DNA from: a phage
Direction: 5' to 3' (one strand)
Sequence record: PZ386947.1
Length of the DNA stretch: 64,000 bases
Below are positions 2,032 to 42,890 of this stretch, in pieces (the first letter of the stretch is position 1; every line of letters starts with the position of its first letter). The translations under genes and the position numbers were made by a program. The notes beneath the pieces were generated by a model. The model saw nothing but the letters and a program-made list of their open reading frames with translations. It was not told the DNA's origin and did no database searches.

Positions 2032-2259
2032 TTACTTAATGTTCAGATTACGAACTTCGATTTCGTCTTCATGGGCAAAATCAAACTGTTTGAATTCTGT
2101 GTCACCTTTAAATTTAAAAATCATTGTGAAGAAAGTCAGAACACCAGGTTTTTCTTCACGAACTCCACAGATATCATATTCAATACCATCTACAACCAGT
2201 TTGTTAGCAGTCAGAGCATTTTTAGCTTTAACGATTTCGTTTTCGATTTTAAATTTCAT
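2032..2259 (-). CDS. hypothetical protein (75 aa)
   Basis: ORF track; ATG 2257-2259; SD CCGGAGA; own early promoter. Confidence 0.5.
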   Translation of the reverse strand: MKFKIENEIVKAKNALTANKLVVDGIEYDICGVREEKPGVLTFFTMIFKFKGDTEFKQFDFAHEDEIEVRNLNIK

Positions 2260-2308
2260 TTTTTGTATCTCCGGGTTGTTTGTTTCAGTTCATTTATTTG
2301 ATAGTTGT

Positions 2309-2338
2309 ATAGTACCACAGTATGCTTTGGTTGTAAAC
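2309..2338 (-). promoter_or_regulatory. T4-type early promoter
   Basis: GTTTAC, 18-nt spacer, TGG TACTAT on minus strand. Confidence 0.5.
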
Positions 2339-2369
2339 CGTTTTGTGAAAAAATTTTTGAAATAAAAAA

Positions 2370-2389
2370 GGGAGAGCCGAGGCTCTCCC
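2370..2389 (-). terminator. intrinsic terminator-like hairpin (8-bp GC stem, CUCG loop, U-run follows on minus transcript)
   Basis: gggagagc cgag gctctccc; plus-strand A-run 2361-2369 gives U-tract after hairpin on minus transcript. Confidence 0.5.
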
Positions 2390-2394
2390 TAAAA

Positions 2395-2544
2395 TTACTG
2401 CATGACTGTGATAACTGTCATGATAACACGTTGAATTCCGAACGCAAGAAGACCTCCTGCTACGGCAGGAACAACACCTAAACCCGCCAGTAAAATGCCA
2501 CCAGATACTAATGCAGCGCTTGTGATACCAATGAATGGACTCAT
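2395..2544 (-). CDS. small hydrophobic protein (49 aa)
   Basis: ATG 2542-2544 overlaps gene 52 stop (ATGA); SD AGAGGAAA; not in ORF track (under 60 aa). Confidence 0.45.
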   Translation of the reverse strand: MSPFIGITSAALVSGGILLAGLGVVPAVAGGLLAFGIQRVIMTVITVMQ

Positions 2545-3869
2545 TTGATTTCCTCTAAATCTTTGGTGTATTCTGTAACTACATCAGTAGTTTTCCAATA
2601 TTCGTTTTCTTCTTTTTTGGCTTTAGCTTCTTCAGCAAGTTTCTTTGCTTCGTCGGAAGTCATATGAAAAATGTTCATTCCAACTAGTTTATCAACATAA
2701 GAAGAATACATATCAATTTTAGAAAGTTCTTCGGTCAGTTCTTTGCGAGTTTTACCTTGTACAACAATTTCACCTGAAATTACTTTCTTAATGAAATGTG
2801 CCTTGGCAAAAGCTAAACGAAATGCTGATTCAGTTTCTTTGATTTTGTTATCAATTCGTTTTTGGACATAAGTTTTACGAACTTCAACGAAGTCTTTGAT
2901 TAAATCAACTACATTATCGTAAACTTGCAGCTTTCCTTTCTCATTAATGACGGTAATATTCTGGGAACGACGCTCAATCAACCCGAAGTCTTTCATAATT
3001 TTTGCATGGCGTTCTTCTTCGTTATCGCTCAAAGAGTATTCTTTACGGAATTTAACTTTAAAGCCAAACCCATGCTCACCGCAAGCATCATCCCACGTAA
3101 TAAAGCCTTTATCTTCAAGCGGGTCTAAAATTTTGCTCACGTAAGTTTCACGATCATACTTATACGGAATCTCAGTGATATGCATTTGAGTTCGTGAAGT
3201 AAACTTGTACGTTCCACGAATTTCATATTGACCGTCAATTTCAACGACTTCACCGCGAAATTCTGGAAATTCTACCTTCGGTTTAGTTACTTTCTTTCCT
3301 TGAAGAGCTTGCAATACAGCTTTCTTGACAGAAGAAACACTATGAGGAAGAATATAAGTTGCATAACCAGTTGCAATACCGGAAACACCATTAAGAAGAA
3401 CAGTAGGAATAATAGGCAAATAGAAAGCAGGCGGAATGTGTTCTTTATCTTGATGTACCGGAGCATATTCAGTATCTTTATATACGTTATAGAAATTTTT
3501 ACTTACACGAGCAAAAATATAACGACTTGCTGCTGCTTTTTGGACGGTACGAGAACCAAAGTTTCCTTGACCATCTAACAGAGGAAAGTTATTATTCCAA
3601 GTATTAGCCATCAAAGCACCTGCGTCTTGTGCAGAGTTTTCACCATGATGATATCCAAGGTCTGCTACACCACCTGCAATAGAAGCGAGTTTGTGAAACT
3701 TATCTTTATTTCCTCGTGCCAAATCAAGAGCTCGAGCAATAACAAATCGTTGAACTGGCTTAAATCCATCAATCATATTTGGGATAGCACGATTTTCAAC
3801 CGTGTACATAGCATAAGCCAATGCTTCATTATCAATGATACTTTTTAAATCACGATTATTCAGTTGCAT
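2541..3869 (-). CDS. 52: DNA topoisomerase II medium subunit gp52 (GyrA-like)
   Basis: 442 aa, same length as T4 gp52; sequence recognised (MQLNNRDLKSIIDNEALAYAMYTVENRAIPN...). Confidence 0.9.
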   Translation of the reverse strand: MQLNNRDLKSIIDNEALAYAMYTVENRAIPNMIDGFKPVQRFVIARALDLARGNKDKFHKLASIAGGVADLGYHHGENSAQDAGALMANTWNNNFPLLDGQGNFGSRTVQKAAASRYIFARVSKNFYNVYKDTEYAPVHQDKEHIPPAFYLPIIPTVLLNGVSGIATGYATYILPHSVSSVKKAVLQALQGKKVTKPKVEFPEFRGEVVEIDGQYEIRGTYKFTSRTQMHITEIPYKYDRETYVSKILDPLEDKGFITWDDACGEHGFGFKVKFRKEYSLSDNEEERHAKIMKDFGLIERRSQNITVINEKGKLQVYDNVVDLIKDFVEVRKTYVQKRIDNKIKETESAFRLAFAKAHFIKKVISGEIVVQGKTRKELTEELSKIDMYSSYVDKLVGMNIFHMTSDEAKKLAEEAKAKKEENEYWKTTDVVTEYTKDLEEIK

Positions 3870-4006
3870 AAATTTACCATACTAGTGAATGTAGTGCCAT
3901 AATAACATCAGAAATGAAAAGCACGACTTGAATTAATCCGAACATTATTCCGTAATATAATGCTATCAATAAAATAGCAAGGGCTAATGAATAGCCCAAG
4001 ATTTTC

Positions 4007-4165
4007 TTAATCATTAGTAGATAACAACACAAATGTTAAATATGCACACATACCCTGAGCTAAAGCTTGCGAAAACACACTGCTGGCATCAATACAGATA
4101 GTTAAAACACATGCTACTATCCAACAAATAAATGAAATAACTCCTAATAATTTTGCAATATTCAT
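4007..4165 (-). CDS. ac: Ac-like small membrane protein (acriflavine sensitivity), 52 aa
   Basis: position between 52 and ndd as in T4; about 51 aa hydrophobic; SD GAGGAAAATATG; not in ORF track. Confidence 0.55.
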   Translation of the reverse strand: MNIAKLLGVISFICWIVACVLTICIDASSVFSQALAQGMCAYLTFVLLSTND

Positions 4166-4177
4166 ATTTTCCTCACT

Positions 4178-4193
4178 GGCGTCCGAAGACGCC
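4178..4193 (-). other. intercistronic RNA hairpin with UUCG tetraloop (ndd-ac junction)
   Basis: ggcgtc cgaa gacgcc; on minus transcript GGCGUC UUCG GACGCC directly upstream of ac SD; no U-tract. Confidence 0.45.
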
Positions 4194-4252
4194 TTTAGTT
4201 TTAAGATTATTACGATAGAACTGCATCACGTGTTCGTTGTGGAAATTACTCA

Positions 4253-4711
4253 TTAATATGCCTGCAAAACGAATTTAAAGTTATCAGCCAACATACGGTT
4301 CATTTCTTCAAGTGTTTGATACTCGGAATGATGATTACGGGTAAACGCCAAAGCTAACTGACCTTTACCAAATCCTGTCGTCAGAGGTTTCATCTTAGAA
4401 GCAGGCAGATAAAATACTGTGTATACCATATTGTTATTTGCAATAGTACGTGCAAGCTGAGACCGACGTTGACGAATATGACTTAGAACTGCACTGAATC
4501 CTTGCTTAGAACGCTGATTACCTACATAAAATCGTGCAGACACACATGGATTACTAAATGGACGACCATCTAATTTACTTACTAAAAAGTAAAATCCAGG
4601 TTTAGATAAAATATCTTTATGCGGAGTTCCTAAAAACCACTCACCACCCTTGATTGTACCAATAACAGTAGCGCCTGCGTTGTTCAGATCAGTAACAGTC
4701 ATGTATTTCAT
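4253..4711 (-). CDS. ndd: Ndd, nucleoid disruption protein
   Basis: 152 aa from ATG 4709-4711 (SD GAGGAAATTAAT); sequence recognised as T4 Ndd; track ORF start is an upstream extension. Confidence 0.8.
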
Positions 4712-4769
4712 ATTAATTTCCTCTAAATTATTTTCTACTCCAAGGCCGCATGAATACGCGGCCATTAAA

Positions 4770-4985
4770 TTAATCGTCGCAGTCGACGCTCAATTCCCAA
4801 AACTCTTCTACAGTATAAGTTTCAGTATCATTTTCAATACAGAAACGTTCATTACTGTTATTTGCTAAAGTAGCATTAACTGTCGGTTTCTCGCTAGTGC
4901 TCTTAAGAGGTGAAATACGAATTAACTGATCACCGTTATCTAAACAGAAAATTTCACCAACTTTTACATCTTTAAAACTTTTCAT
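4770..4985 (-). CDS. hypothetical protein (71 aa), ndd-denB region
   Basis: ORF track; ATG 4983-4985; SD GAGGTG. Confidence 0.45.
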
Positions 4986-4993
4986 AATTCACC

Positions 4994-5104
4994 TCAAGGA
5001 GTATAAAATCCAAATGCAGTTGTTGACCATCCCATCCAATACGGAAAATTTGCACCAATGTAAAACATAAGAATATAAAACCAAATGTTTAGTAAATTCA
5101 TCAT
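4994..5104 (-). CDS. small membrane protein (36 aa)
   Basis: ATG overlaps upstream stop (ATGA at 5101-5104); hydrophobic; below track size cutoff. Confidence 0.35.
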   Translation of the reverse strand: MMNLLNIWFYILMFYIGANFPYWMGWSTTAFGFYTP

Positions 5105-5298
5105 TTTACACCATTCCAAATTGTTTCAACTACGGATTTTAAACCATTCTGATGAATATCCATTCCGACTACCGCCATCAAATAGATTCCAACTACAACT
5201 GAACCTAAGGCAAAAATCAGCATGAAAATGAATAAAGCCGGAAAAATATTATCGAAAAACCATTCAATAAATGTAAAAGCACTGCGTTTACGCTTCAT
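5101..5298 (-). CDS. small membrane protein (65 aa)
   Basis: ATG 5296-5298 with SD GAGGAAAATATG; track ORF extended to upstream TTG. Confidence 0.45.
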   Translation of the reverse strand: MKRKRSAFTFIEWFFDNIFPALFIFMLIFALGSVVVGIYLMAVVGMDIHQNGLKSVVETIWNGVK

Positions 5299-5447: not shown

Positions 5448-5477
5448 ATAGTACCACGGAAGAACAGTCTTGTAAAC
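5448..5477 (-). promoter_or_regulatory. T4-type early promoter
   Basis: GTTTAC, 18 nt, TGG TACTAT on minus strand. Confidence 0.5.
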
Positions 5478-5662
5478 AACTTTTTTAAAAATATTCGTAA
5501 TAAATGTGAATACCAACTACTACCGCTGAAACTTGCACAACCCACCACGCACAAGCAATAAGTACAGAATTCAAAATTTTCATAATAACCTCATCACAAA
5601 AGTAAATGTTAAACAAATTACTGGAATACTAATTAACCAAACAAAACACCACCATAATGAAC

Positions 5663-5926
5663 TCATAGCTCAATCTCAGCGATTTTCATTTCACTACTAT
5701 TAATAGCCGCTTTAAGACTATCTGAAAGAATTACATTCCAGTGGTCATTCATATGACCATTAACTAAGCGTGTAATTTCTTCAGGAGTTGAAAAATAAGG
5801 CTGATCAGACTCCCAATGCGATAATCCTAAGCGAGTATAAATCATGCCTTCATCATCGCTAGAATATTCAACTGACACAAACTCATCAGTTATTTTATGT
5901 TTAGCGTAATAAAATTTAAATTTCAT
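5663..5926 (-). CDS. hypothetical protein (87 aa)
   Basis: ORF track; ATG 5924-5926; SD ACGGAGGAG. Confidence 0.5.
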   Translation of the reverse strand: MKFKFYYAKHKITDEFVSVEYSSDDEGMIYTRLGLSHWESDQPYFSTPEEITRLVNGHMNDHWNVILSDSLKAAINSSEMKIAEIEL

Positions 5927-5951
5927 TTTTACTCCTCCGTAGCTGATAGTT

Positions 5952-5981
5952 GTATTACCACGGTCCTTGTGGTATGTAAAC
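5952..5981 (-). promoter_or_regulatory. putative early promoter (good -35, weak -10 TAATAC)
   Basis: GTTTAC, 18 nt, TGG TAATAC. Confidence 0.35.
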
Positions 5982-5998
5982 CATTTTGTGAAATTTTT

Positions 5999-6556
5999 TT
6001 AAATGGAAAGATACCATCCGTTGTAGTTGCTTTTTCTTACAACCTTACGAAGGTCTTCTCTGTCACCGATGAACTTCGGAGTGTACTGGATGACACCTGG
6101 ATGAATTTCTTTAGTGTTGAATATAATTATACAGTCAGCGACTTGATGATTTAGAATGGGCCCTAGATTTATTCCAGAACCGTATGGATACTCTCCGCTG
6201 CATCCTGTTGTTACAGAAATCCAACGTGAGTCAGTTTGGTGTGTCTTAACTTCTACACGAAGCCCGCAGTATCTTGGATGCGCCAATACATCCCATGCGT
6301 ATGTATACGGGTCATTAACATCCTCTTGGCCTTTATTAACATACCCGCTTAACCAATCTGCTACAAAAAATTCTGCGTACACAGCGATACGACATCTTTC
6401 AATAACTTCTGCTTTATCCTGGTTCGGGTTTTGTTTTAAAGAGTATCTTGCTGTATCAGCAATTTTGACCTTCATTTCACTAGTCAAGTCACTGTTCGAT
6501 AGGGTAAATGTCGGAATCTGAAATAGTCTCTGTAAACCCGGATTCGTTTTCTGCAT
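5999..6556 (-). CDS. denB: DenB, endonuclease IV
   Basis: 185 aa as in T4 DenB; position between ndd block and rIIB; strong SD AAAAGGAAAG. Confidence 0.7.
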   Translation of the reverse strand: MQKTNPGLQRLFQIPTFTLSNSDLTSEMKVKIADTARYSLKQNPNQDKAEVIERCRIAVYAEFFVADWLSGYVNKGQEDVNDPYTYAWDVLAHPRYCGLRVEVKTHQTDSRWISVTTGCSGEYPYGSGINLGPILNHQVADCIIIFNTKEIHPGVIQYTPKFIGDREDLRKVVRKSNYNGWYLSI

Positions 6557-38640: not shown

Positions 38641-38657
38641 GTTTTTCCTCCATAGAG

Positions 38658-38683
38658 ATTATACTCTAATAAATTAAAGCATA
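38658..38683 (-). promoter_or_regulatory. MotA-dependent middle promoter (45.2 / rpbA / 45 operon)
   Basis: MotA box TATGCTTTA, 11-nt spacer, TATAAT. Confidence 0.5.
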
Positions 38684-38695
38684 ATCTCTTATAAA

Positions 38696-40378
38696 TTAAA
38701 CCATTACAGTAAATCGACCAACTTTCTTCATTTGAAGATGCTGACCATATTCTTGCGGGTCATGGTCTTTATGTGAAATTATAAAAACATTAGTGTTTTT
38801 CATTGAATTTATAATATTAGCTACACCTTTAATACCTTCGGCATCAAATGACCCATCAAACACTTCATCGAGTATTAATGTACTAATACTAACACCAGAT
38901 ACAATAGAAGCAATATCACGCCAAGTAAATAAAAGAGCAATATCAATTCGTGCTTTTTCACCTTCACTAAATGAAGCATAACTAAAATCTTCACGACCAC
39001 GGGATTTAATTGTCTCATTAAATTCTTCATCTAATGTAAACACATAATCCGCTTCCATTATTTTAAGATAATGGTTAATCTGCTTATTAAATAATGGAAT
39101 GTACTTTTTAATAATAGCACCTTTAATACCAGAATCTTTGAGCATATCAGTCAAAATTCCTCGGTGGTATTTTTCCATTACTAAATTAGTTTTTGTCTTA
39201 ACAATTTTATCAAGTTCTTCTTGAAGCAGTGCTATTTCATCAGCATGGTCAATAAACTCAGAAGATGCTTTTTCTATAGCCGCTTTAACTTTTTTGGCTT
39301 TATCTACCGTCGTGATTAGAGATTGCTTTTTATTGCGAATATCATTTGCCAACGACTGTTGGGTTTTAATATTATCTCGGTATTCATCAACAAGAACTTT
39401 TAAATTATCACGATGTGTTGAAAGCTGTTCAAACGAATGCGTACATTCAGAAACTTTATCTTTAATTTTAGAAACAACTTTATCACCGGAACTCAATTGT
39501 GACAAACAGGTTGGACATAATCCACCTTCGTGATACATATTAATGACTTTATTATACGAGTCAATTTTTGATTTAATTAAAACTGCTTCTTGACCGATTT
39601 TATTAAATGCATCAGTCGGGTCTTCATCCAAAACAATATTAACTAATCTTTCGTTAGCTTCTTCTATTTCCGATTTTAGCGTTCTAGCTTCTTTTGCCAA
39701 ATCATCATACATATTTTGCAGACGAGTAAGGTTGTCACCCGTTAATTTTTTCTGGCGTTCAACGTTATCATTATATATTTTAATTTGTTGGATAATACTA
39801 TCTTTTTTAACATCAAGCACTTGGTTCTGCGAATTTAATTCACGTATTAGTGCTTTATTAAGCTTATCCATTTCAGCTAATGTTCCTACCTCAAGCAGGT
39901 CTTCCACAAGCTTTCTTCGCGCAGGGGTCGACAAACCCATGAAAGGGGTATACCCTGCTGTACCAAGGACAACAATCTGCTTGAAACTGGCATATGACAT
40001 TCCGATAAGCTGTTCAAATTCTGCTTGGAAATCTTTACTGCTGGCAGATTCATTAAGACGTGTACCGTTAACGGTGATTTCGAAAACGTTTGGTTTTTGT
40101 CCTCTTTTGATATAGTACTTTTTCTCATCATATTCCATCCACAGTTCAACTAAAAGTTCTTTCTTATTTGTGCTGTTTATTAATTGACCTTTCTTTACAT
40201 CACGAAATGGTTTGCCAAAAAGCCCAAATGTGATGGCTTCTAACATAGTAGACTTACCACCGCCATTTCGGCCAGTAATAAGAGTTTTTTGAACCTTATC
40301 TAATTGAATGTCAACTCCATTTTGACCAACTGACATTATATTTTTATATTTTACTCTATTAAGTTTAAATGATTTCAT
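38696..40378 (-). CDS. 46: gp46, recombination nuclease subunit (Rad50/SbcC-like ATPase)
   Basis: 560 aa as T4 gp46; Walker A GRNGGGKST, long coiled coil, signature SGGE. Confidence 0.85.
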   Translation of the reverse strand: MKSFKLNRVKYKNIMSVGQNGVDIQLDKVQKTLITGRNGGGKSTMLEAITFGLFGKPFRDVKKGQLINSTNKKELLVELWMEYDEKKYYIKRGQKPNVFEITVNGTRLNESASSKDFQAEFEQLIGMSYASFKQIVVLGTAGYTPFMGLSTPARRKLVEDLLEVGTLAEMDKLNKALIRELNSQNQVLDVKKDSIIQQIKIYNDNVERQKKLTGDNLTRLQNMYDDLAKEARTLKSEIEEANERLVNIVLDEDPTDAFNKIGQEAVLIKSKIDSYNKVINMYHEGGLCPTCLSQLSSGDKVVSKIKDKVSECTHSFEQLSTHRDNLKVLVDEYRDNIKTQQSLANDIRNKKQSLITTVDKAKKVKAAIEKASSEFIDHADEIALLQEELDKIVKTKTNLVMEKYHRGILTDMLKDSGIKGAIIKKYIPLFNKQINHYLKIMEADYVFTLDEEFNETIKSRGREDFSYASFSEGEKARIDIALLFTWRDIASIVSGVSISTLILDEVFDGSFDAEGIKGVANIINSMKNTNVFIISHKDHDPQEYGQHLQMKKVGRFTVMV

Positions 40379-40393
40379 TTTGTATCCAATTGT

Positions 40394-41248
40394 TCACAAT
40401 GAAGAAAATTCTTTAACTAAAGCCTGTAATGAAGCCTCTATTGGATATCCATTCTTAACTAACATTTTCCTAAACATTACATGTTTAGGACGATTATATG
40501 ATATCCACAATTCATACAATTTATCTTTATTATCCCAATGATAGCCTTTTCGTCGAGATGCTATATGAGCTTTTCTAATCTCCGGATTTTTCCAACTAGC
40601 AGCTACTGAATTTGATATAGCTATTTTATATTCAGGTTTTGATAAAGCAGCACGAACAGCCTTTTGGTGTTTAATTTTATTTTCTTCGTTATTAAACCAT
40701 TCCCTTGAAGCCATTGAAATTTTTTGTTTTGTTTTAAAATTATTTAATCTTTCTTTATTATCTTTCCTATTTTTTGCTACTGAAAAATATTTTAATGCCC
40801 TTTCTCTAGCAGCATTTCTATTTTGCGGATTTGAATAATACTGTTGAAGCCTTTTTGATATTGTGTCACTTACATCTTGTTTTATAAAACTATATTCAGC
40901 AGCTATTAAATCAACTTCGGCTAAAGATAAATTTTTATATGTTTTTCCTGACATCATTCTATTTAAAGCATTTAGCATTTTTCCATTTTTACCTTTTGCT
41001 AATAAGAAGTGTGCTTTAAAATGATTAAAATGACTTAAATTAACTAAATTCCATGTAGATTTTAAATATTCAGGAAATATTGATTTAGGAAGCACGTGGT
41101 GTGCTTCCGTTTTACCTGGAGTTTTAACAGTTGAATTCACAGAAATAAAATTAATGTAAGACTTGGCGTCTTCTTCACTCAACGCTAATTTTTCAACTAA
41201 TTCCTTTATTAAAAATTCATCATTAATGTCAAGTTTAAAATTCTTCAC
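40394..41248 (-). CDS. HNH homing endonuclease-like protein with NUMOD3-like repeats (284 aa)
   Basis: HNH motif EAHHVLPKS...NLVNL...HFNHFKAH; GTG start with SD AAGGAATCTTTT; no equivalent recalled at this T4 position. Confidence 0.6.
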   Translation of the reverse strand: MKNFKLDINDEFLIKELVEKLALSEEDAKSYINFISVNSTVKTPGKTEAHHVLPKSIFPEYLKSTWNLVNLSHFNHFKAHFLLAKGKNGKMLNALNRMMSGKTYKNLSLAEVDLIAAEYSFIKQDVSDTISKRLQQYYSNPQNRNAARERALKYFSVAKNRKDNKERLNNFKTKQKISMASREWFNNEENKIKHQKAVRAALSKPEYKIAISNSVAASWKNPEIRKAHIASRRKGYHWDNKDKLYELWISYNRPKHVMFRKMLVKNGYPIEASLQALVKEFSSL

Positions 41249-41508
41249 AAAAGATTCCTTTTAATGTATCTTTTAGACCATTCTATCATATCATCATAAT
41301 CTAAAAAGTATTCATCAAATTCAGCCATGCAAACAACGCCTTGTGCTGCTTTTGATGTGATATAAATTATTCCAACATATCTAGAATCTTCTTCGGTGTA
41401 ATCAATATTTGCTATGAATTCATCATTAATGTCAAATGTCGAAAACTTCACAGTATGCATCCTTAATACAAGATACAGCCATATCTCGTAATGATTTAGG
41501 TGTGTCAT
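41245..41508 (-). CDS. hypothetical protein (87 aa; alternative ATG at 41460)
   Basis: ORF track; overlaps next ORF by up to 77 nt; start uncertain. Confidence 0.4.
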   Translation of the reverse strand: MTHLNHYEIWLYLVLRMHTVKFSTFDINDEFIANIDYTEEDSRYVGIIYITSKAAQGVVCMAEFDEYFLDYDDMIEWSKRYIKRNLL

Positions 41509-41695
41509 TATCTAAAATGTTGAAGTTAAAAGATACAGCCCAGTCAGTGCAGACTGTAACCTTTTTAATACAATTATCTTCAACCTCTAGCGGTTCAAAC
41601 CAATATTCAATAATTTCTTTATGACCAATATCATCTTTTACTTCGCATTCAAAATGCTGACTCATCATAACATTTTTAAATTCATCAAAAGTCAT
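41432..41695 (-). CDS. hypothetical protein (87 aa)
   Basis: ORF track; ATGA overlap with gene 47 stop. Confidence 0.45.
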   Translation of the reverse strand: MTFDEFKNVMMSQHFECEVKDDIGHKEIIEYWFEPLEVEDNCIKKVTVCTDWAVSFNFNILDNDTPKSLRDMAVSCIKDAYCEVFDI

Positions 41696-42711
41696 TGTGT
41701 TGCCTCTACATATAGCTGATTCGCATATTGAATAAGTGCTTCACGGTCAGAATCAGTGATGTCTGGAATTGCATTAATGTATTCTTCCATCAACGTCTGA
41801 AGAGATTGAACTTCAACTTCTTCACTTTCATCTGACTCGACAGAGTTATCAATTTTTGACACAACTCGTAATGAATGCACAACTTTTTCTAGTTCAGATT
41901 CGAACTTCGTCAGATTTTTGTCTACCTCAGTTACTATAACACGTACTGATAGATTTGTAAAATCTTTATAGTCAATTTTTCCTTTAAATGGATAATGAAT
42001 TCTACGATGCCAGGTAGTATTGTTTGGAATAAATTCCATTCGTTCTGTTTCTGTATCAAACATCCAGAACCCACGAGGGTCATTCTCGTCACCTGCAGTT
42101 AGTGTCCATGGTGTCCCAATATATCTGACGTTAGCAGCCTCAGAGATAGTATGGAAGTGACCAGACCACACCTCTTTATAAGTCTTAAGGAAATCAGGTT
42201 CAAGACCGTGAGATTTCATTCCTTTATAAAAATAAAATCCATTCAGCTCCCAGTGACCAACACAAAAAGAAGCAGATGAAGTTTTGATGTGTTCAAGAAT
42301 TTCACCAGTATTTTCTTCACACATCCAAGGAATTAAATCAATCAAACATCCGTCAAAATCTACTGTAGTAGGCTTATCATACACTTTAACATTAGGATAT
42401 TTAGCCAAAAGCTCAGTAGAGGCATTTGGAGTTAAAGTATTTTTAAAGTGCATATCATGGTTTCCTACAACAGTATGTAGGGTAATACCAGCATCATCAA
42501 GCATTTGAACTATTTCACGAGCGAACTCCATAGTTTTATGTGTGATTGCTTTTCGCACATCAAAAATATCACCATATTGAATCCATACAGTAATTCCATT
42601 TTTCTTAGAATATTCTATCGCTTGCTTAATTCCATCAATTTGAATACCGCGAATCCACTCATCATCGGCTTTAACGCCTAAATGCCAATCACCTAAATTT
42701 AAAATTTTCAT
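41692..42711 (-). CDS. 47: gp47, recombination nuclease subunit (Mre11/SbcD-like)
   Basis: 339 aa as T4 gp47; phosphoesterase motifs DWHLG, GDIFD, GNHD. Confidence 0.85.
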   Translation of the reverse strand: MKILNLGDWHLGVKADDEWIRGIQIDGIKQAIEYSKKNGITVWIQYGDIFDVRKAITHKTMEFAREIVQMLDDAGITLHTVVGNHDMHFKNTLTPNASTELLAKYPNVKVYDKPTTVDFDGCLIDLIPWMCEENTGEILEHIKTSSASFCVGHWELNGFYFYKGMKSHGLEPDFLKTYKEVWSGHFHTISEAANVRYIGTPWTLTAGDENDPRGFWMFDTETERMEFIPNNTTWHRRIHYPFKGKIDYKDFTNLSVRVIVTEVDKNLTKFESELEKVVHSLRVVSKIDNSVESDESEEVEVQSLQTLMEEYINAIPDITDSDREALIQYANQLYVEATQ

Positions 42712-42848
42712 ATATCAAGAACCGTCATTGAAATGCAAAATAAAATTATTGAAATAAACCCATCTGGTGTGCTAAAGAACCCAATCCAACATGCTCTAGT
42801 GAATAGATAAAATGCAAGAAAAAGTATCACATATCCAAGAAATATCAT
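42708..42848 (-). CDS. small membrane protein (46 aa), 47.1 position
   Basis: ATG 42846-42848 after SD ACGGAG; stop overlaps gene 47 ATG (ATGA); below track cutoff. Confidence 0.45.
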   Translation of the reverse strand: MIFLGYVILFLAFYLFTRACWIGFFSTPDGFISIILFCISMTVLDI

Positions 42849-42870
42849 TATATCAAACTCCGTATAAAGC

Positions 42871-42890
42871 TAAAGGGCCGAAGCCCTTTA
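42871..42890 (-). terminator. UUCG-tetraloop hairpin downstream of agt
   Basis: taaagggc cgaa gcccttta overlapping agt stop. Confidence 0.5.

Follow-up and report, generated by a model that had tools for sequence, protein, structure and literature searches.

In T4, genes 47 and 46 are separated only by the small genes 46.2 and 46.1, as a preliminary description of the DNA studied here had stated. In this stretch of phage DNA (sequence record PZ386947.1; 64,000 nucleotides, hereafter the window), the same interval contains in addition a 284-aa open reading frame (ORF), which that description, made from the letters alone, had interpreted as an inserted HNH homing-endonuclease gene (HEG). The locus therefore raises the question of what this ORF is, how it came to lie at the start of the essential gene 46, and whether it moves between phages.

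An additional gene between genes 47 and 46

The interval 40200-41800 of the window matches Shigella phage CM8 (Tequatrovirus) at 100%, and many T4-like phages at 97-99%. All genes of the locus are on the minus strand, and the order of transcription is 47, 46.2, 46.1, the HNH ORF and 46 (Table 1). It follows that the ORF is located upstream of gene 46 in transcription, and not directly downstream of it, as had been stated. The 87-aa ORF that had been considered its neighbour is an over-extended call of the 68-aa gene 46.1: in RefSeq and in the T4 annotation 46.1 starts at the GTG at 41451, and the Pfam domain DUF5487 aligns from residue 20 of the long version.

Table 1. Features of the 47-46 locus, in coordinates of the 64,000-nucleotide window
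Feature	Position	Strand	Basis or remark
Gene 47 (Mre11/SbcD-like subunit)	41692..42711	-	ORF list and RefSeq annotation
Gene 46.2 (87 aa, T4_Y03C family)	41432..41695	-	Pfam, RefSeq annotation
Gene 46.1 (68 aa, DUF5487, GTG start)	41245..41451	-	RefSeq and T4 annotation, Pfam, PHROG
HNH homing-endonuclease ORF (284 aa, Mob-like)	40394..41248	-	GTG start overlaps 46.1 stop (GTGA)
Gene 46 (Rad50/SbcC-like recombination nuclease subunit, 560 aa)	38696..40378	-	ORF list, RefSeq
HNH motif, codons 50-80 (HH-x15-N-x8-H-x3-H)	41009..41101	-	14-sequence family alignment
870-bp insert	40361..41230	-	Junction alignments; boundaries slide within the 9-nt direct repeat
9-nt direct repeat TTTAAACTT, left copy (codons 4-6 of the original gene 46)	41231..41239	-	Junction alignments
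9-nt direct repeat TTTAAACTT, right copy (codons 4-6 of the present gene 46)	40361..40369	-	Junction alignments
Captured native gene 46 start GTGAAGAATTTTAAACTT (MKNFKL), HNH ORF codons 1-6	41231..41248	-	T4 comparison
Replacement gene 46 start: spacer with weak GGA ribosome site, and ATGAAATCA (MKS)	40370..40393	-	PhAPEC2 comparison
19-nt repeat, HNH ORF copy (last two bases of codon 6 through codon 12, DINDEF)	41214..41232	-	Exact match
19-nt repeat, 46.1 copy (codons 6-12)	41417..41435	-	Also in HEG-less phages including T4
A patch of gene 46, codons 7-22 (linked to the HEG; predicted to be the immune form of the target)	40312..40360	-	Allele comparison

Homology places the ORF among the free-standing HNH homing-endonuclease genes of the Mob family, and nuclease activity is predicted for its product. 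Firstly, it matches the PHROG families phrog_655 ('homing endonuclease', 8e-45) and phrog_12434 ('HNH endonuclease', 4e-15), and tblastn aligned it with mobC-type genes (36% identity over 73-81% of the query, E~1e-22) and with mobD (30% identity over 83% of the query, E~1e-11). Secondly, the HNH catalytic motif that had been noticed in the 284-aa ORF was confirmed: the residues H50-H51...N67...H76...H80 are invariant in all 14 diverse family members aligned. Residues 47-84 are predicted to form a strand-strand-helix in the confident N-terminal domain of the AF2 model, with a block-mean pLDDT of 85-91 over these residues and a fall to ~70 across residues 41-50. HNH nucleases were not among the matches of fold searches with the AF2 models, the protein had no match at E<=1 in Pfam or NCBIfam, and a PDB sequence search found no relative. 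An exhaustive HMMER search of 1.8 billion representatives yielded 967 relatives at E<=1e-3, only three of which reached E<=1e-30; a word-indexed protein search returned 6 proteins only, and scans of IMG/VR and of the JGI metagenomes contained no close relatives.

NUMOD3-like repeats had also been proposed for the protein. Five degenerate 'N-P-E-x-R/K' units can be recognised by eye, and they have diverged too far for the protein itself to obtain a Pfam NUMOD3 score; in the region aligned to it, however, the homologues P0058, P0062, P0070 and P0084 do contain Pfam NUMOD3. One of these, P0070, also barely reaches Pfam HNH, at 21.7 bits versus a cut-off of 21.4. The gene is already annotated in databases, as 'homing endonuclease' in the RefSeq records of CM8 and T6 and as 'mob-like' in the T2 record, and it is uncharacterised. 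Petrov et al. (2010) tally putative HNH HEGs in T2, T6 and RB51, in a Table 5 that gives no positions (PMC2993671). Our literature searches found such inventories of putative HNH HEGs, and no characterisation or experimental study of this ORF.

The gene is present in 72 of 519-563 related phage records, and is missing from ~86% of about 500 relatives. Nearly all of the remaining records (~430) contain an empty site that is exactly 870 bp shorter. The site is empty in T4 and most relatives, and T6 has an intact copy; the copies of T2 and RB51 are frameshifted by a 2-nt deletion (40637-40638) and a 1-nt deletion (40725), respectively. Since T2 and RB51 are viable, the gene is dispensable. This distribution shows the invasion-decay pattern of a selfish element, and agrees with the original view of a freestanding homing-endonuclease insertion with empty-site alleles, and not of a gene shared by T4 and all its close relatives.

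The insert, the linked patch in gene 46 and their transfer

Compared with T4-type empty sites, the insert has a size of exactly 870 bp (the same query spans 1331 bp in empty-site records versus 2201 bp in CM8) and is placed after codon 6 of gene 46. It is flanked by a perfect 9-nt direct repeat, TTTAAACTT, which was overlooked in the preliminary description, as was the HEG-linked patch in gene 46 discussed below. In T4, the stop codon of 46.1 overlaps the GTG start of gene 46, and AAAAGGAATCTTTTGTGAAGAATTTTAAACTT runs directly into AATAGAGTAAAA. In CM8, the T4 sequence is kept through AAACTT and is then followed by GACATTAATGATGAATTT, which belongs to the HNH ORF; at the other end of the insert, TTCATTGTGAACAATTGGATACAAAATGAAATCATTTAAACTT runs into AATAGAGTAAAA. 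The 18 nt of GTGAAGAATTTTAAACTT and the sequence upstream of them do not differ from T4 at the start of gene 46, and the 3' end of 46.1, which contains the AGGA ribosome site used by the HNH ORF, is unchanged. The HNH ORF has no start of its own, and reads in frame from the original ribosome site, GTG and first six codons of gene 46. Therefore, its translation presumably remains coupled to that of 46.1.

At its 3' end, the cassette contributes a stop codon and a short spacer, followed by a new ATG and initial codons for gene 46, which now begins MKSFKL (new ATG, ATGAAATCA, as in Mosigvirus) instead of the original MKNFKL, and whose translation would now rely on a weaker GGA site 6 nt upstream of the ATG. 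Fifteen nucleotides of this cassette start (ATGAAATCATTTAAA) recur unchanged at the native start of gene 46 in PhAPEC2, a Mosigvirus that lacks the HEG, and part of the right end of the cassette thus comes from another lineage. A HEG-less phage with ATGAAATCATTTAAACTTAA was absent from IMG/VR, and the related Mosigvirus start was later found in PhAPEC2. We rejected the possibility that the cassette has its own promoter, because sigma-70 promoter-like sites in the region did not exceed the expectation from shuffled sequence and the T4 late promoter TATAAATA is absent from the insert. Presumably, the ORF shares the transcript of the 47-46 operon, and its translation depends on that of 46.1.

The sequence of gene 46 that adjoins the insertion point exists in two versions in HEG-less Tequatrovirus phages. 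Allele A (T4, G8, PYPS2T) matches the gene 46 start of the HEG+ phages, and the majority allele B is present in RB3, Ozark, pSs-1, fPS-90 and others. There are 13-14 fixed differences between allele B and the HEG+ group, all of which lie within ~47 nt (40315-40361) next to the insertion point, whereas the remainder of the 4-kb interval contains none. A census by 82-nt junction queries counted about 72 HEG+ records, all with the A patch, about 72 empty sites of type A and about 355 of type B. In Gelderlandvirus, the flanks of the HEG+ phage SEA1 are 97-100% identical to those of the HEG-less phages S16 and STML-198, whereas their gene 46 sequences agree at only 54 of the first 80 nt; the SEA1 and CM8 patches share 24 nt (TTTAAACTTAATAGAGTAAAATAT). 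The same local contrast is seen between F2 and PhAPEC2. At the protein level, HEG-less gp46 of Tequatrovirus, Mosigvirus and Gelderlandvirus reads Y-Q12-NIMSVG-G19-(N/S)-P, whereas the three HEG+ types read Y-(K/K/S)-NIMSVG-Q19, with K or S at position 12; this three-genus association consists of three lineage pairs with related sequences. It should be noted that further divergent patches occur elsewhere in genes 46 and 47, and that mosaicism alone can therefore yield patches.

A Logan contig (L029, Mosigvirus-like) bears on the movement of the gene. Across genes 47 and 46.2 and the body of 46 it shares 98-100% identity with F2 and only 60-85% with CM8. Between the equivalents of window positions ~41340 and ~40312, on the other hand, it is 98-100% identical to CM8. 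This stretch of ~1 kb comprises the last ~95 nt of 46.1, the whole HNH gene, and the new start of gene 46 together with ~50 nt beyond it. The presence of the CM8 cassette with its flanks in an F2-like backbone indicates transfer with co-converted flanks. In addition, nucleotide diversity in seven HEG+ Tequatrovirus genomes is ~0.007 across 41299-40300, compared with 0.02-0.03 in the flanking genes, a level also found among HEG-less phages.

Based on these data, we consider it likely, with a probability of about 0.7, that the locus holds a free-standing Mob-family HNH homing-endonuclease gene on a mobile cassette of ~1 kb, placed inside the 5' end of the essential gene 46. We infer that the target of the enzyme lies in codons ~11-22 of gene 46, in the Q12/G19-type sequence of HEG-less phages. 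In a mixed infection, the enzyme would cut HEG-less gene 46 at this place, and repair of the break off the HEG+ genome would copy in both the endonuclease gene and the uncuttable patch. The process would be one of intronless homing with co-conversion. The T4-type empty sites with an A patch probably result from loss of the HEG by deletion between the 9-nt repeats, and their carriers would be immune survivors; T4 differs from the HEG+ phages at 40315-40316, and therefore such sites are not simple deletion products of today's cassette.

The polarity of the two alleles could also be the reverse, the A patch being the sensitive natural target and B a resistant escape variant that spread, with the insertion protecting HEG+ genomes by splitting the site. 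We regard this as unlikely. It would account for the A patch in every HEG+ Tequatrovirus, which is expected if A-type genomes were invaded, and for the fact that the B patch starts exactly at the insertion point, and the immunising change could then be that of the first three codons of gene 46, from the old GTGAAGAAT to the new ATGAAATCA. However, B-like Q12/G19 is common to HEG-less phages of three genera, and the three HEG+ lineages have non-Q12/Q19 sequences, a split that agrees with an ancestral B and a cassette-linked A. Furthermore, the A patch moved with the cassette into a foreign backbone in L029, and the SEA1 cassette has the 24 nt of it mentioned above.

Origin of the N-terminus of the endonuclease

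The 19-nt identity between the HNH ORF and 46.1, pointed out in the preliminary description, is exact and maximal, since it cannot be extended on either side. It had been considered unlikely by chance, and this is supported by 60 first-order Markov simulations of the 64-kb window: 0.03 direct repeats of at least 19 nt are expected per window, and in none of the 60 simulations did such a pair lie within 500 nt. Thus, the repeat is real. The other long repeats of the window are promoter and terminator families. The 46.1 copy is also found in HEG-less phages, and this copy is therefore native to 46.1. Codons 7-12 of the HNH ORF (GAC ATT AAT GAT GAA TT) are the same as codons 7-12 of 46.1, in the same register. 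Hence, the supposed duplication of FSTFDINDEF is confined to DINDEF. Similarly, the suggestion that the endonuclease gene captured the 5' end of its neighbour needs to be divided: only codons 7-12 (17-19 nt) come from 46.1, and the start and codons 1-6 come from gene 46. In the CM8 HNH protein, residues 1-12 are unmatched in the family, the homology of whose members begins around residue 13, and the 19 nt are not part of a longer family motif. The N-terminus is therefore chimeric: codons 1-6 derive from gene 46 and codons 7-12 from 46.1, and the endonuclease itself follows.

The closest relatives of the CM8 HNH protein, which are 44% identical to it, share the 47/46 locus and are present in phage F2 and Salmonella phage SEA1. 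The gene order is 46.2, HNH, 46 in F2 and 47, HNH, 46 in SEA1, with the endonuclease in place of 46.1 in both. The F2 HNH gene begins with 22 nt, ATGACGAAGACTGATTATGAAA (MTKTDYE), which are likewise the first 22 nt of 46.1 (79 aa) in PhAPEC2, a HEG-less Mosigvirus, and in contig L029; the F2 endonuclease is thus fused to the first 7 codons of the 46.1 of its lineage. Together with the fusion to the gene 46 start in CM8, this means that a resident start has been captured at least twice.

The 19-nt repeat may be a relic of the formation of the left junction. By analogy with F2, codons 1-12 of a T4-type 46.1 probably once formed the beginning of the endonuclease gene. The starts of 46.1 and 46 resemble each other (GTGAAG...TT, 12 of 18 nt identical), and an out-of-register join between them could have followed. 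Its product would be 46.1, then an endonuclease gene composed of 46 codons 1-6, 46.1 codons 7-12 and the HNH part, and then gene 46. The predicted ancestor, in which codons 1-12 of 46.1 are joined to HNH codon 13, was absent from INPHARED, GTDB genomes and JGI metagenomes; the INPHARED search with the ancestral junction gave two-piece matches only, to the two separate repeat copies.

It is improbable that the identity is due to chance or to a functional signal shared by the two 5' ends, such as the site of a translational regulator or an RNA structure, instead of being a recombination relic. Both copies are equally distant from a GTGAAG start, and the likeness of the starts of 46.1 and 46 in another lineage (16 of 21 nt in L012) hints at constraint or repeated conversion. 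However, apart from the low expectation per window, a pair within 500 nt is expected by chance at about 5e-4, and synonymous changes break the identity in T2, Pu-Krd-SF7, P8, pSs-1 and fPS-90, while FNLGDEF replaces FDINDEF in other lineages, so that no strict DNA-level signal is conserved at the repeat.

We consider it slightly less probable still that the copy went the other way, 46.1 being a decayed earlier endonuclease gene whose N-terminus is homologous to the HNH N-terminal region. This would be in line with the occurrence of the endonuclease in place of 46.1 in F2 and SEA1, with the similar starts of 46.1 and 46 in L012, and with a BLASTP alignment of 46.1 residues 1-33 with HNH residues 1-39 (14/39 identical, E=4e-4 in a single comparison) that extends past DINDEF to EED..Y..I..S. 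A profile comparison of 46.1 with the HNH family, however, gave a probability of 0.2%, which does not support homology, the first 12 HNH residues are absent from other family members, and an exact 19-nt identity amid weak similarity points to a recent copy and not to old homology. Finally, it is very improbable that the ORF has been domesticated as a non-mobile accessory nuclease acting together with the gp46/gp47 recombination nuclease: its position between the Mre11-like and Rad50-like genes, its presumed co-transcription and translational coupling and the failure to find a promoter of its own would suit this role, but it is missing in about 86% of close relatives including T4, frameshifted in the viable T2 and RB51, transplanted with its flanks into a diverged backbone in L029, and less diverse than its flanks.

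Returning to the mobile cassette, we tentatively suggest a wider reading, which we hold to be possible though rather less than evenly probable. Members of the HNH clade found at the 47/46 locus may be transferred as one self-contained 'start-swap plus immunity' cassette, which takes the resident start (of 46 or 46.1) and delivers an uncuttable gene 46 5' end that is partly conserved in three genera. The K12/Q19 of T4 would then be the scar of an invasion followed by precise loss, and 46.1 is maybe the fossil of an earlier round.

Relation to known systems and implications

HNH endonucleases of the I-HmuI type with NUMOD modules combine an HNH motif with a long series of small DNA-binding modules behind it. 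The ORF resembles them in its HNH motif and putative module array, but has no PDB sequence or fold match and is not intron-encoded. Closer to it are the T4 proteins MobA-E, especially MobC, MobD and MobE, to which it is homologous (36% identity for MobC-type, 30% for MobD). Both have an N-terminal HNH module, a middle region (putatively of NUMOD3 type in the ORF) and a C-terminal module, and both are free-standing, patchily distributed, and located between or within conserved T-even DNA-metabolism genes. In contrast to the T4 Mob genes, the closest relatives of the ORF are only 44% identical and are also found at the 47/46 locus, and the ORF lacks its own start and reads from six codons of the interrupted gene. 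Experiments have demonstrated that MobE mobilises both itself and the defunct I-TevIII (PMC2790892); for the ORF, cleavage and target are predicted from sequence.

The intronless homing and marker exclusion of SegF and SegG in T4 x T2 crosses likewise involve a free-standing endonuclease gene beside an essential gene (PMC2988022, PMC2993671). As for SegF and SegG, the predicted target of the ORF lies in the adjoining gene, tens of bp from the insertion, with putatively resistant polymorphisms in the host genome, and flanks are co-converted, here represented by the A patch and the L029 transplant. SegF and SegG, on the other hand, are GIY-YIG enzymes whose cleavage sites have been mapped, whereas cleavage by the ORF product is inferred and its cassette rebuilds the start of the target gene. 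The mobE-type insertion in nrdA of the Aeromonas phage Aeh1 is also a Mob-like HNH gene within an essential coding sequence whose function is kept (PMC3045599). In that case nrdA is left as two polypeptides that reassemble, whereas gene 46 loses only six codons, which are replaced by the duplicated start of the cassette, and gp46 therefore remains a single protein.

What the present analysis adds to the existing annotation is a corrected junction, a linked patch in three genera, a natural transplant, and testable predictions of target and sensitivity. A practical consequence concerns annotation: the starts of genes 46 and 46.1 are often miscalled in these T4-like genomes, which calls for caution. 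With this ORF, the T-even system gains a free-standing homing endonuclease that is uncharacterised and for which a specific target is predicted. The predicted target, gene 46, encodes the Rad50-like recombination nuclease on which homing may itself depend, and it is predicted that laboratory phages of the RB3 type are sensitive and that T4, T2 and T6 are immune. The junction shows how a selfish gene can reside within the coding sequence of an essential gene without cost to its host, by borrowing one start and supplying a new one. Contig L029 preserves the trace of a natural transfer between diverged T4-like lineages, and as such bears on the role of homing endonucleases in creating local mosaicism and marker exclusion in phage crosses.

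Hairpins and repeated motifs

Within the endonuclease ORF of CM8 there is a perfect hairpin with a 9-bp stem, GGAAGCAC-nnn-GTGCTTCC, which coincides exactly with the codons of the catalytic E-A-H-H-V-L-P motif, and which scored as terminator-like on the antisense strand in our scan. The window also contains five intergenic copies of a GC-rich hairpin, AAAGGGCCGAAGCCCTTTA, one of which lies just upstream of the 47 operon; these look like a common family of intrinsic terminators. In addition, a motif of 20-23 nt, TTGATAGTTGTATAGTACCA, is repeated at no fewer than four sites, and its copies appear to be T4-type early promoters of one family.

Coordinates of the features and the records concerned (locus, position in the 47-46 locus of the relative)
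Feature	Record	Locus	Window
Perfect hairpin in the endonuclease ORF	CM8		41088-41108
AAAGGGCCGAAGCCCTTTA hairpin copies	CM8		6836, 7064, 37292, 42872, 46511
AAAGGGCCGAAGCCCTTTA copy upstream of the 47 operon	CM8		42871-42890
TTGATAGTTGTATAGTACCA motif copies	CM8		2298, 32433, 58118, 60039
Highly divergent patches inside genes 47 and 46			42400-42699, 39900-39999, 38700-38899
Gene 46 start miscalled	L020 PYPS2T, L021 RB3, L024 fPS-90, L027 Sf21, L028 G9062		
Synonymously recoded segment	L016 Ac3	2203-5244	
207-aa HNH endonuclease gene, between a-gt and gene 47	L024 fPS-90, L026 phiC600P9, L028 G9062	3420-4043	equivalent to ~42712-42890
mobB-like gene, just past the gene 46 stop	L015 RB51	4755-5251	equivalent to ~38641-38695 (also for F2 and Ozark)
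mobB-like gene	L005 F2	5476-6192	
mobB-like gene	L022 Ozark	1-298	

Starts of 46.1 and gene 46, and two unusual records

In a more divergent phage (L012, IMG/VR UViG 2706795408), the start of 46.1, ATGAAGACTTTTGAATTTAAT, and that of gene 46, GTGAAGACTTTTAAGCTTAAG, are identical at 16 of 21 nt, and relative to T4 their third codons co-vary. The pattern gives a hint either of an old copying of the gene 46 start into 46.1 or of gene conversion between the two starts. As regards annotation, many public records, including those listed in the table, place the start of gene 46 too far downstream, by 42 nt (14 codons), missing the GTG that overlaps the 46.1 stop; the 46.1 start is likewise miscalled in several of them.

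The record of phage Ac3 (OK040907) matches that of RB51, down to the 1-nt frameshift in the HNH gene. However, a stretch that opens directly behind the start codon of the HNH gene and runs past gene 46 is synonymously recoded, with 777 differences and a GC content raised from 31% to 46%, the protein being unchanged. This public record thus seems to contain a segment that was engineered or recoded by computer. In the case of phage HP3.2 (OP978391), the match covers 38% of the 47-46 query and spans 911 bp; 46.1 and 46.2 appear to have been lost, and the endonuclease gene also appears to be absent.

Other endonuclease genes and divergent patches

Some relatives, such as those in the table, carry an HNH endonuclease gene different from that of CM8, which is located directly upstream of gene 47 and overlaps its start; at this position, CM8 has only a small 47.1-like ORF. 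Furthermore, RB51, F2 and Ozark have a mobB-like homing-endonuclease gene on the opposite strand between genes 46 and 45.2, which CM8 lacks.

Genes 47 and 46 contain short patches with 15-37 differences per 100 nt between phages that are elsewhere 97-99% identical. Those near the start of gene 47 and near the 3' end of gene 46 adjoin the insertion sites of the two other endonuclease genes, and could be target or co-conversion patches of those genes. Endonuclease genes have a hot spot in the region around genes 47 and 46.
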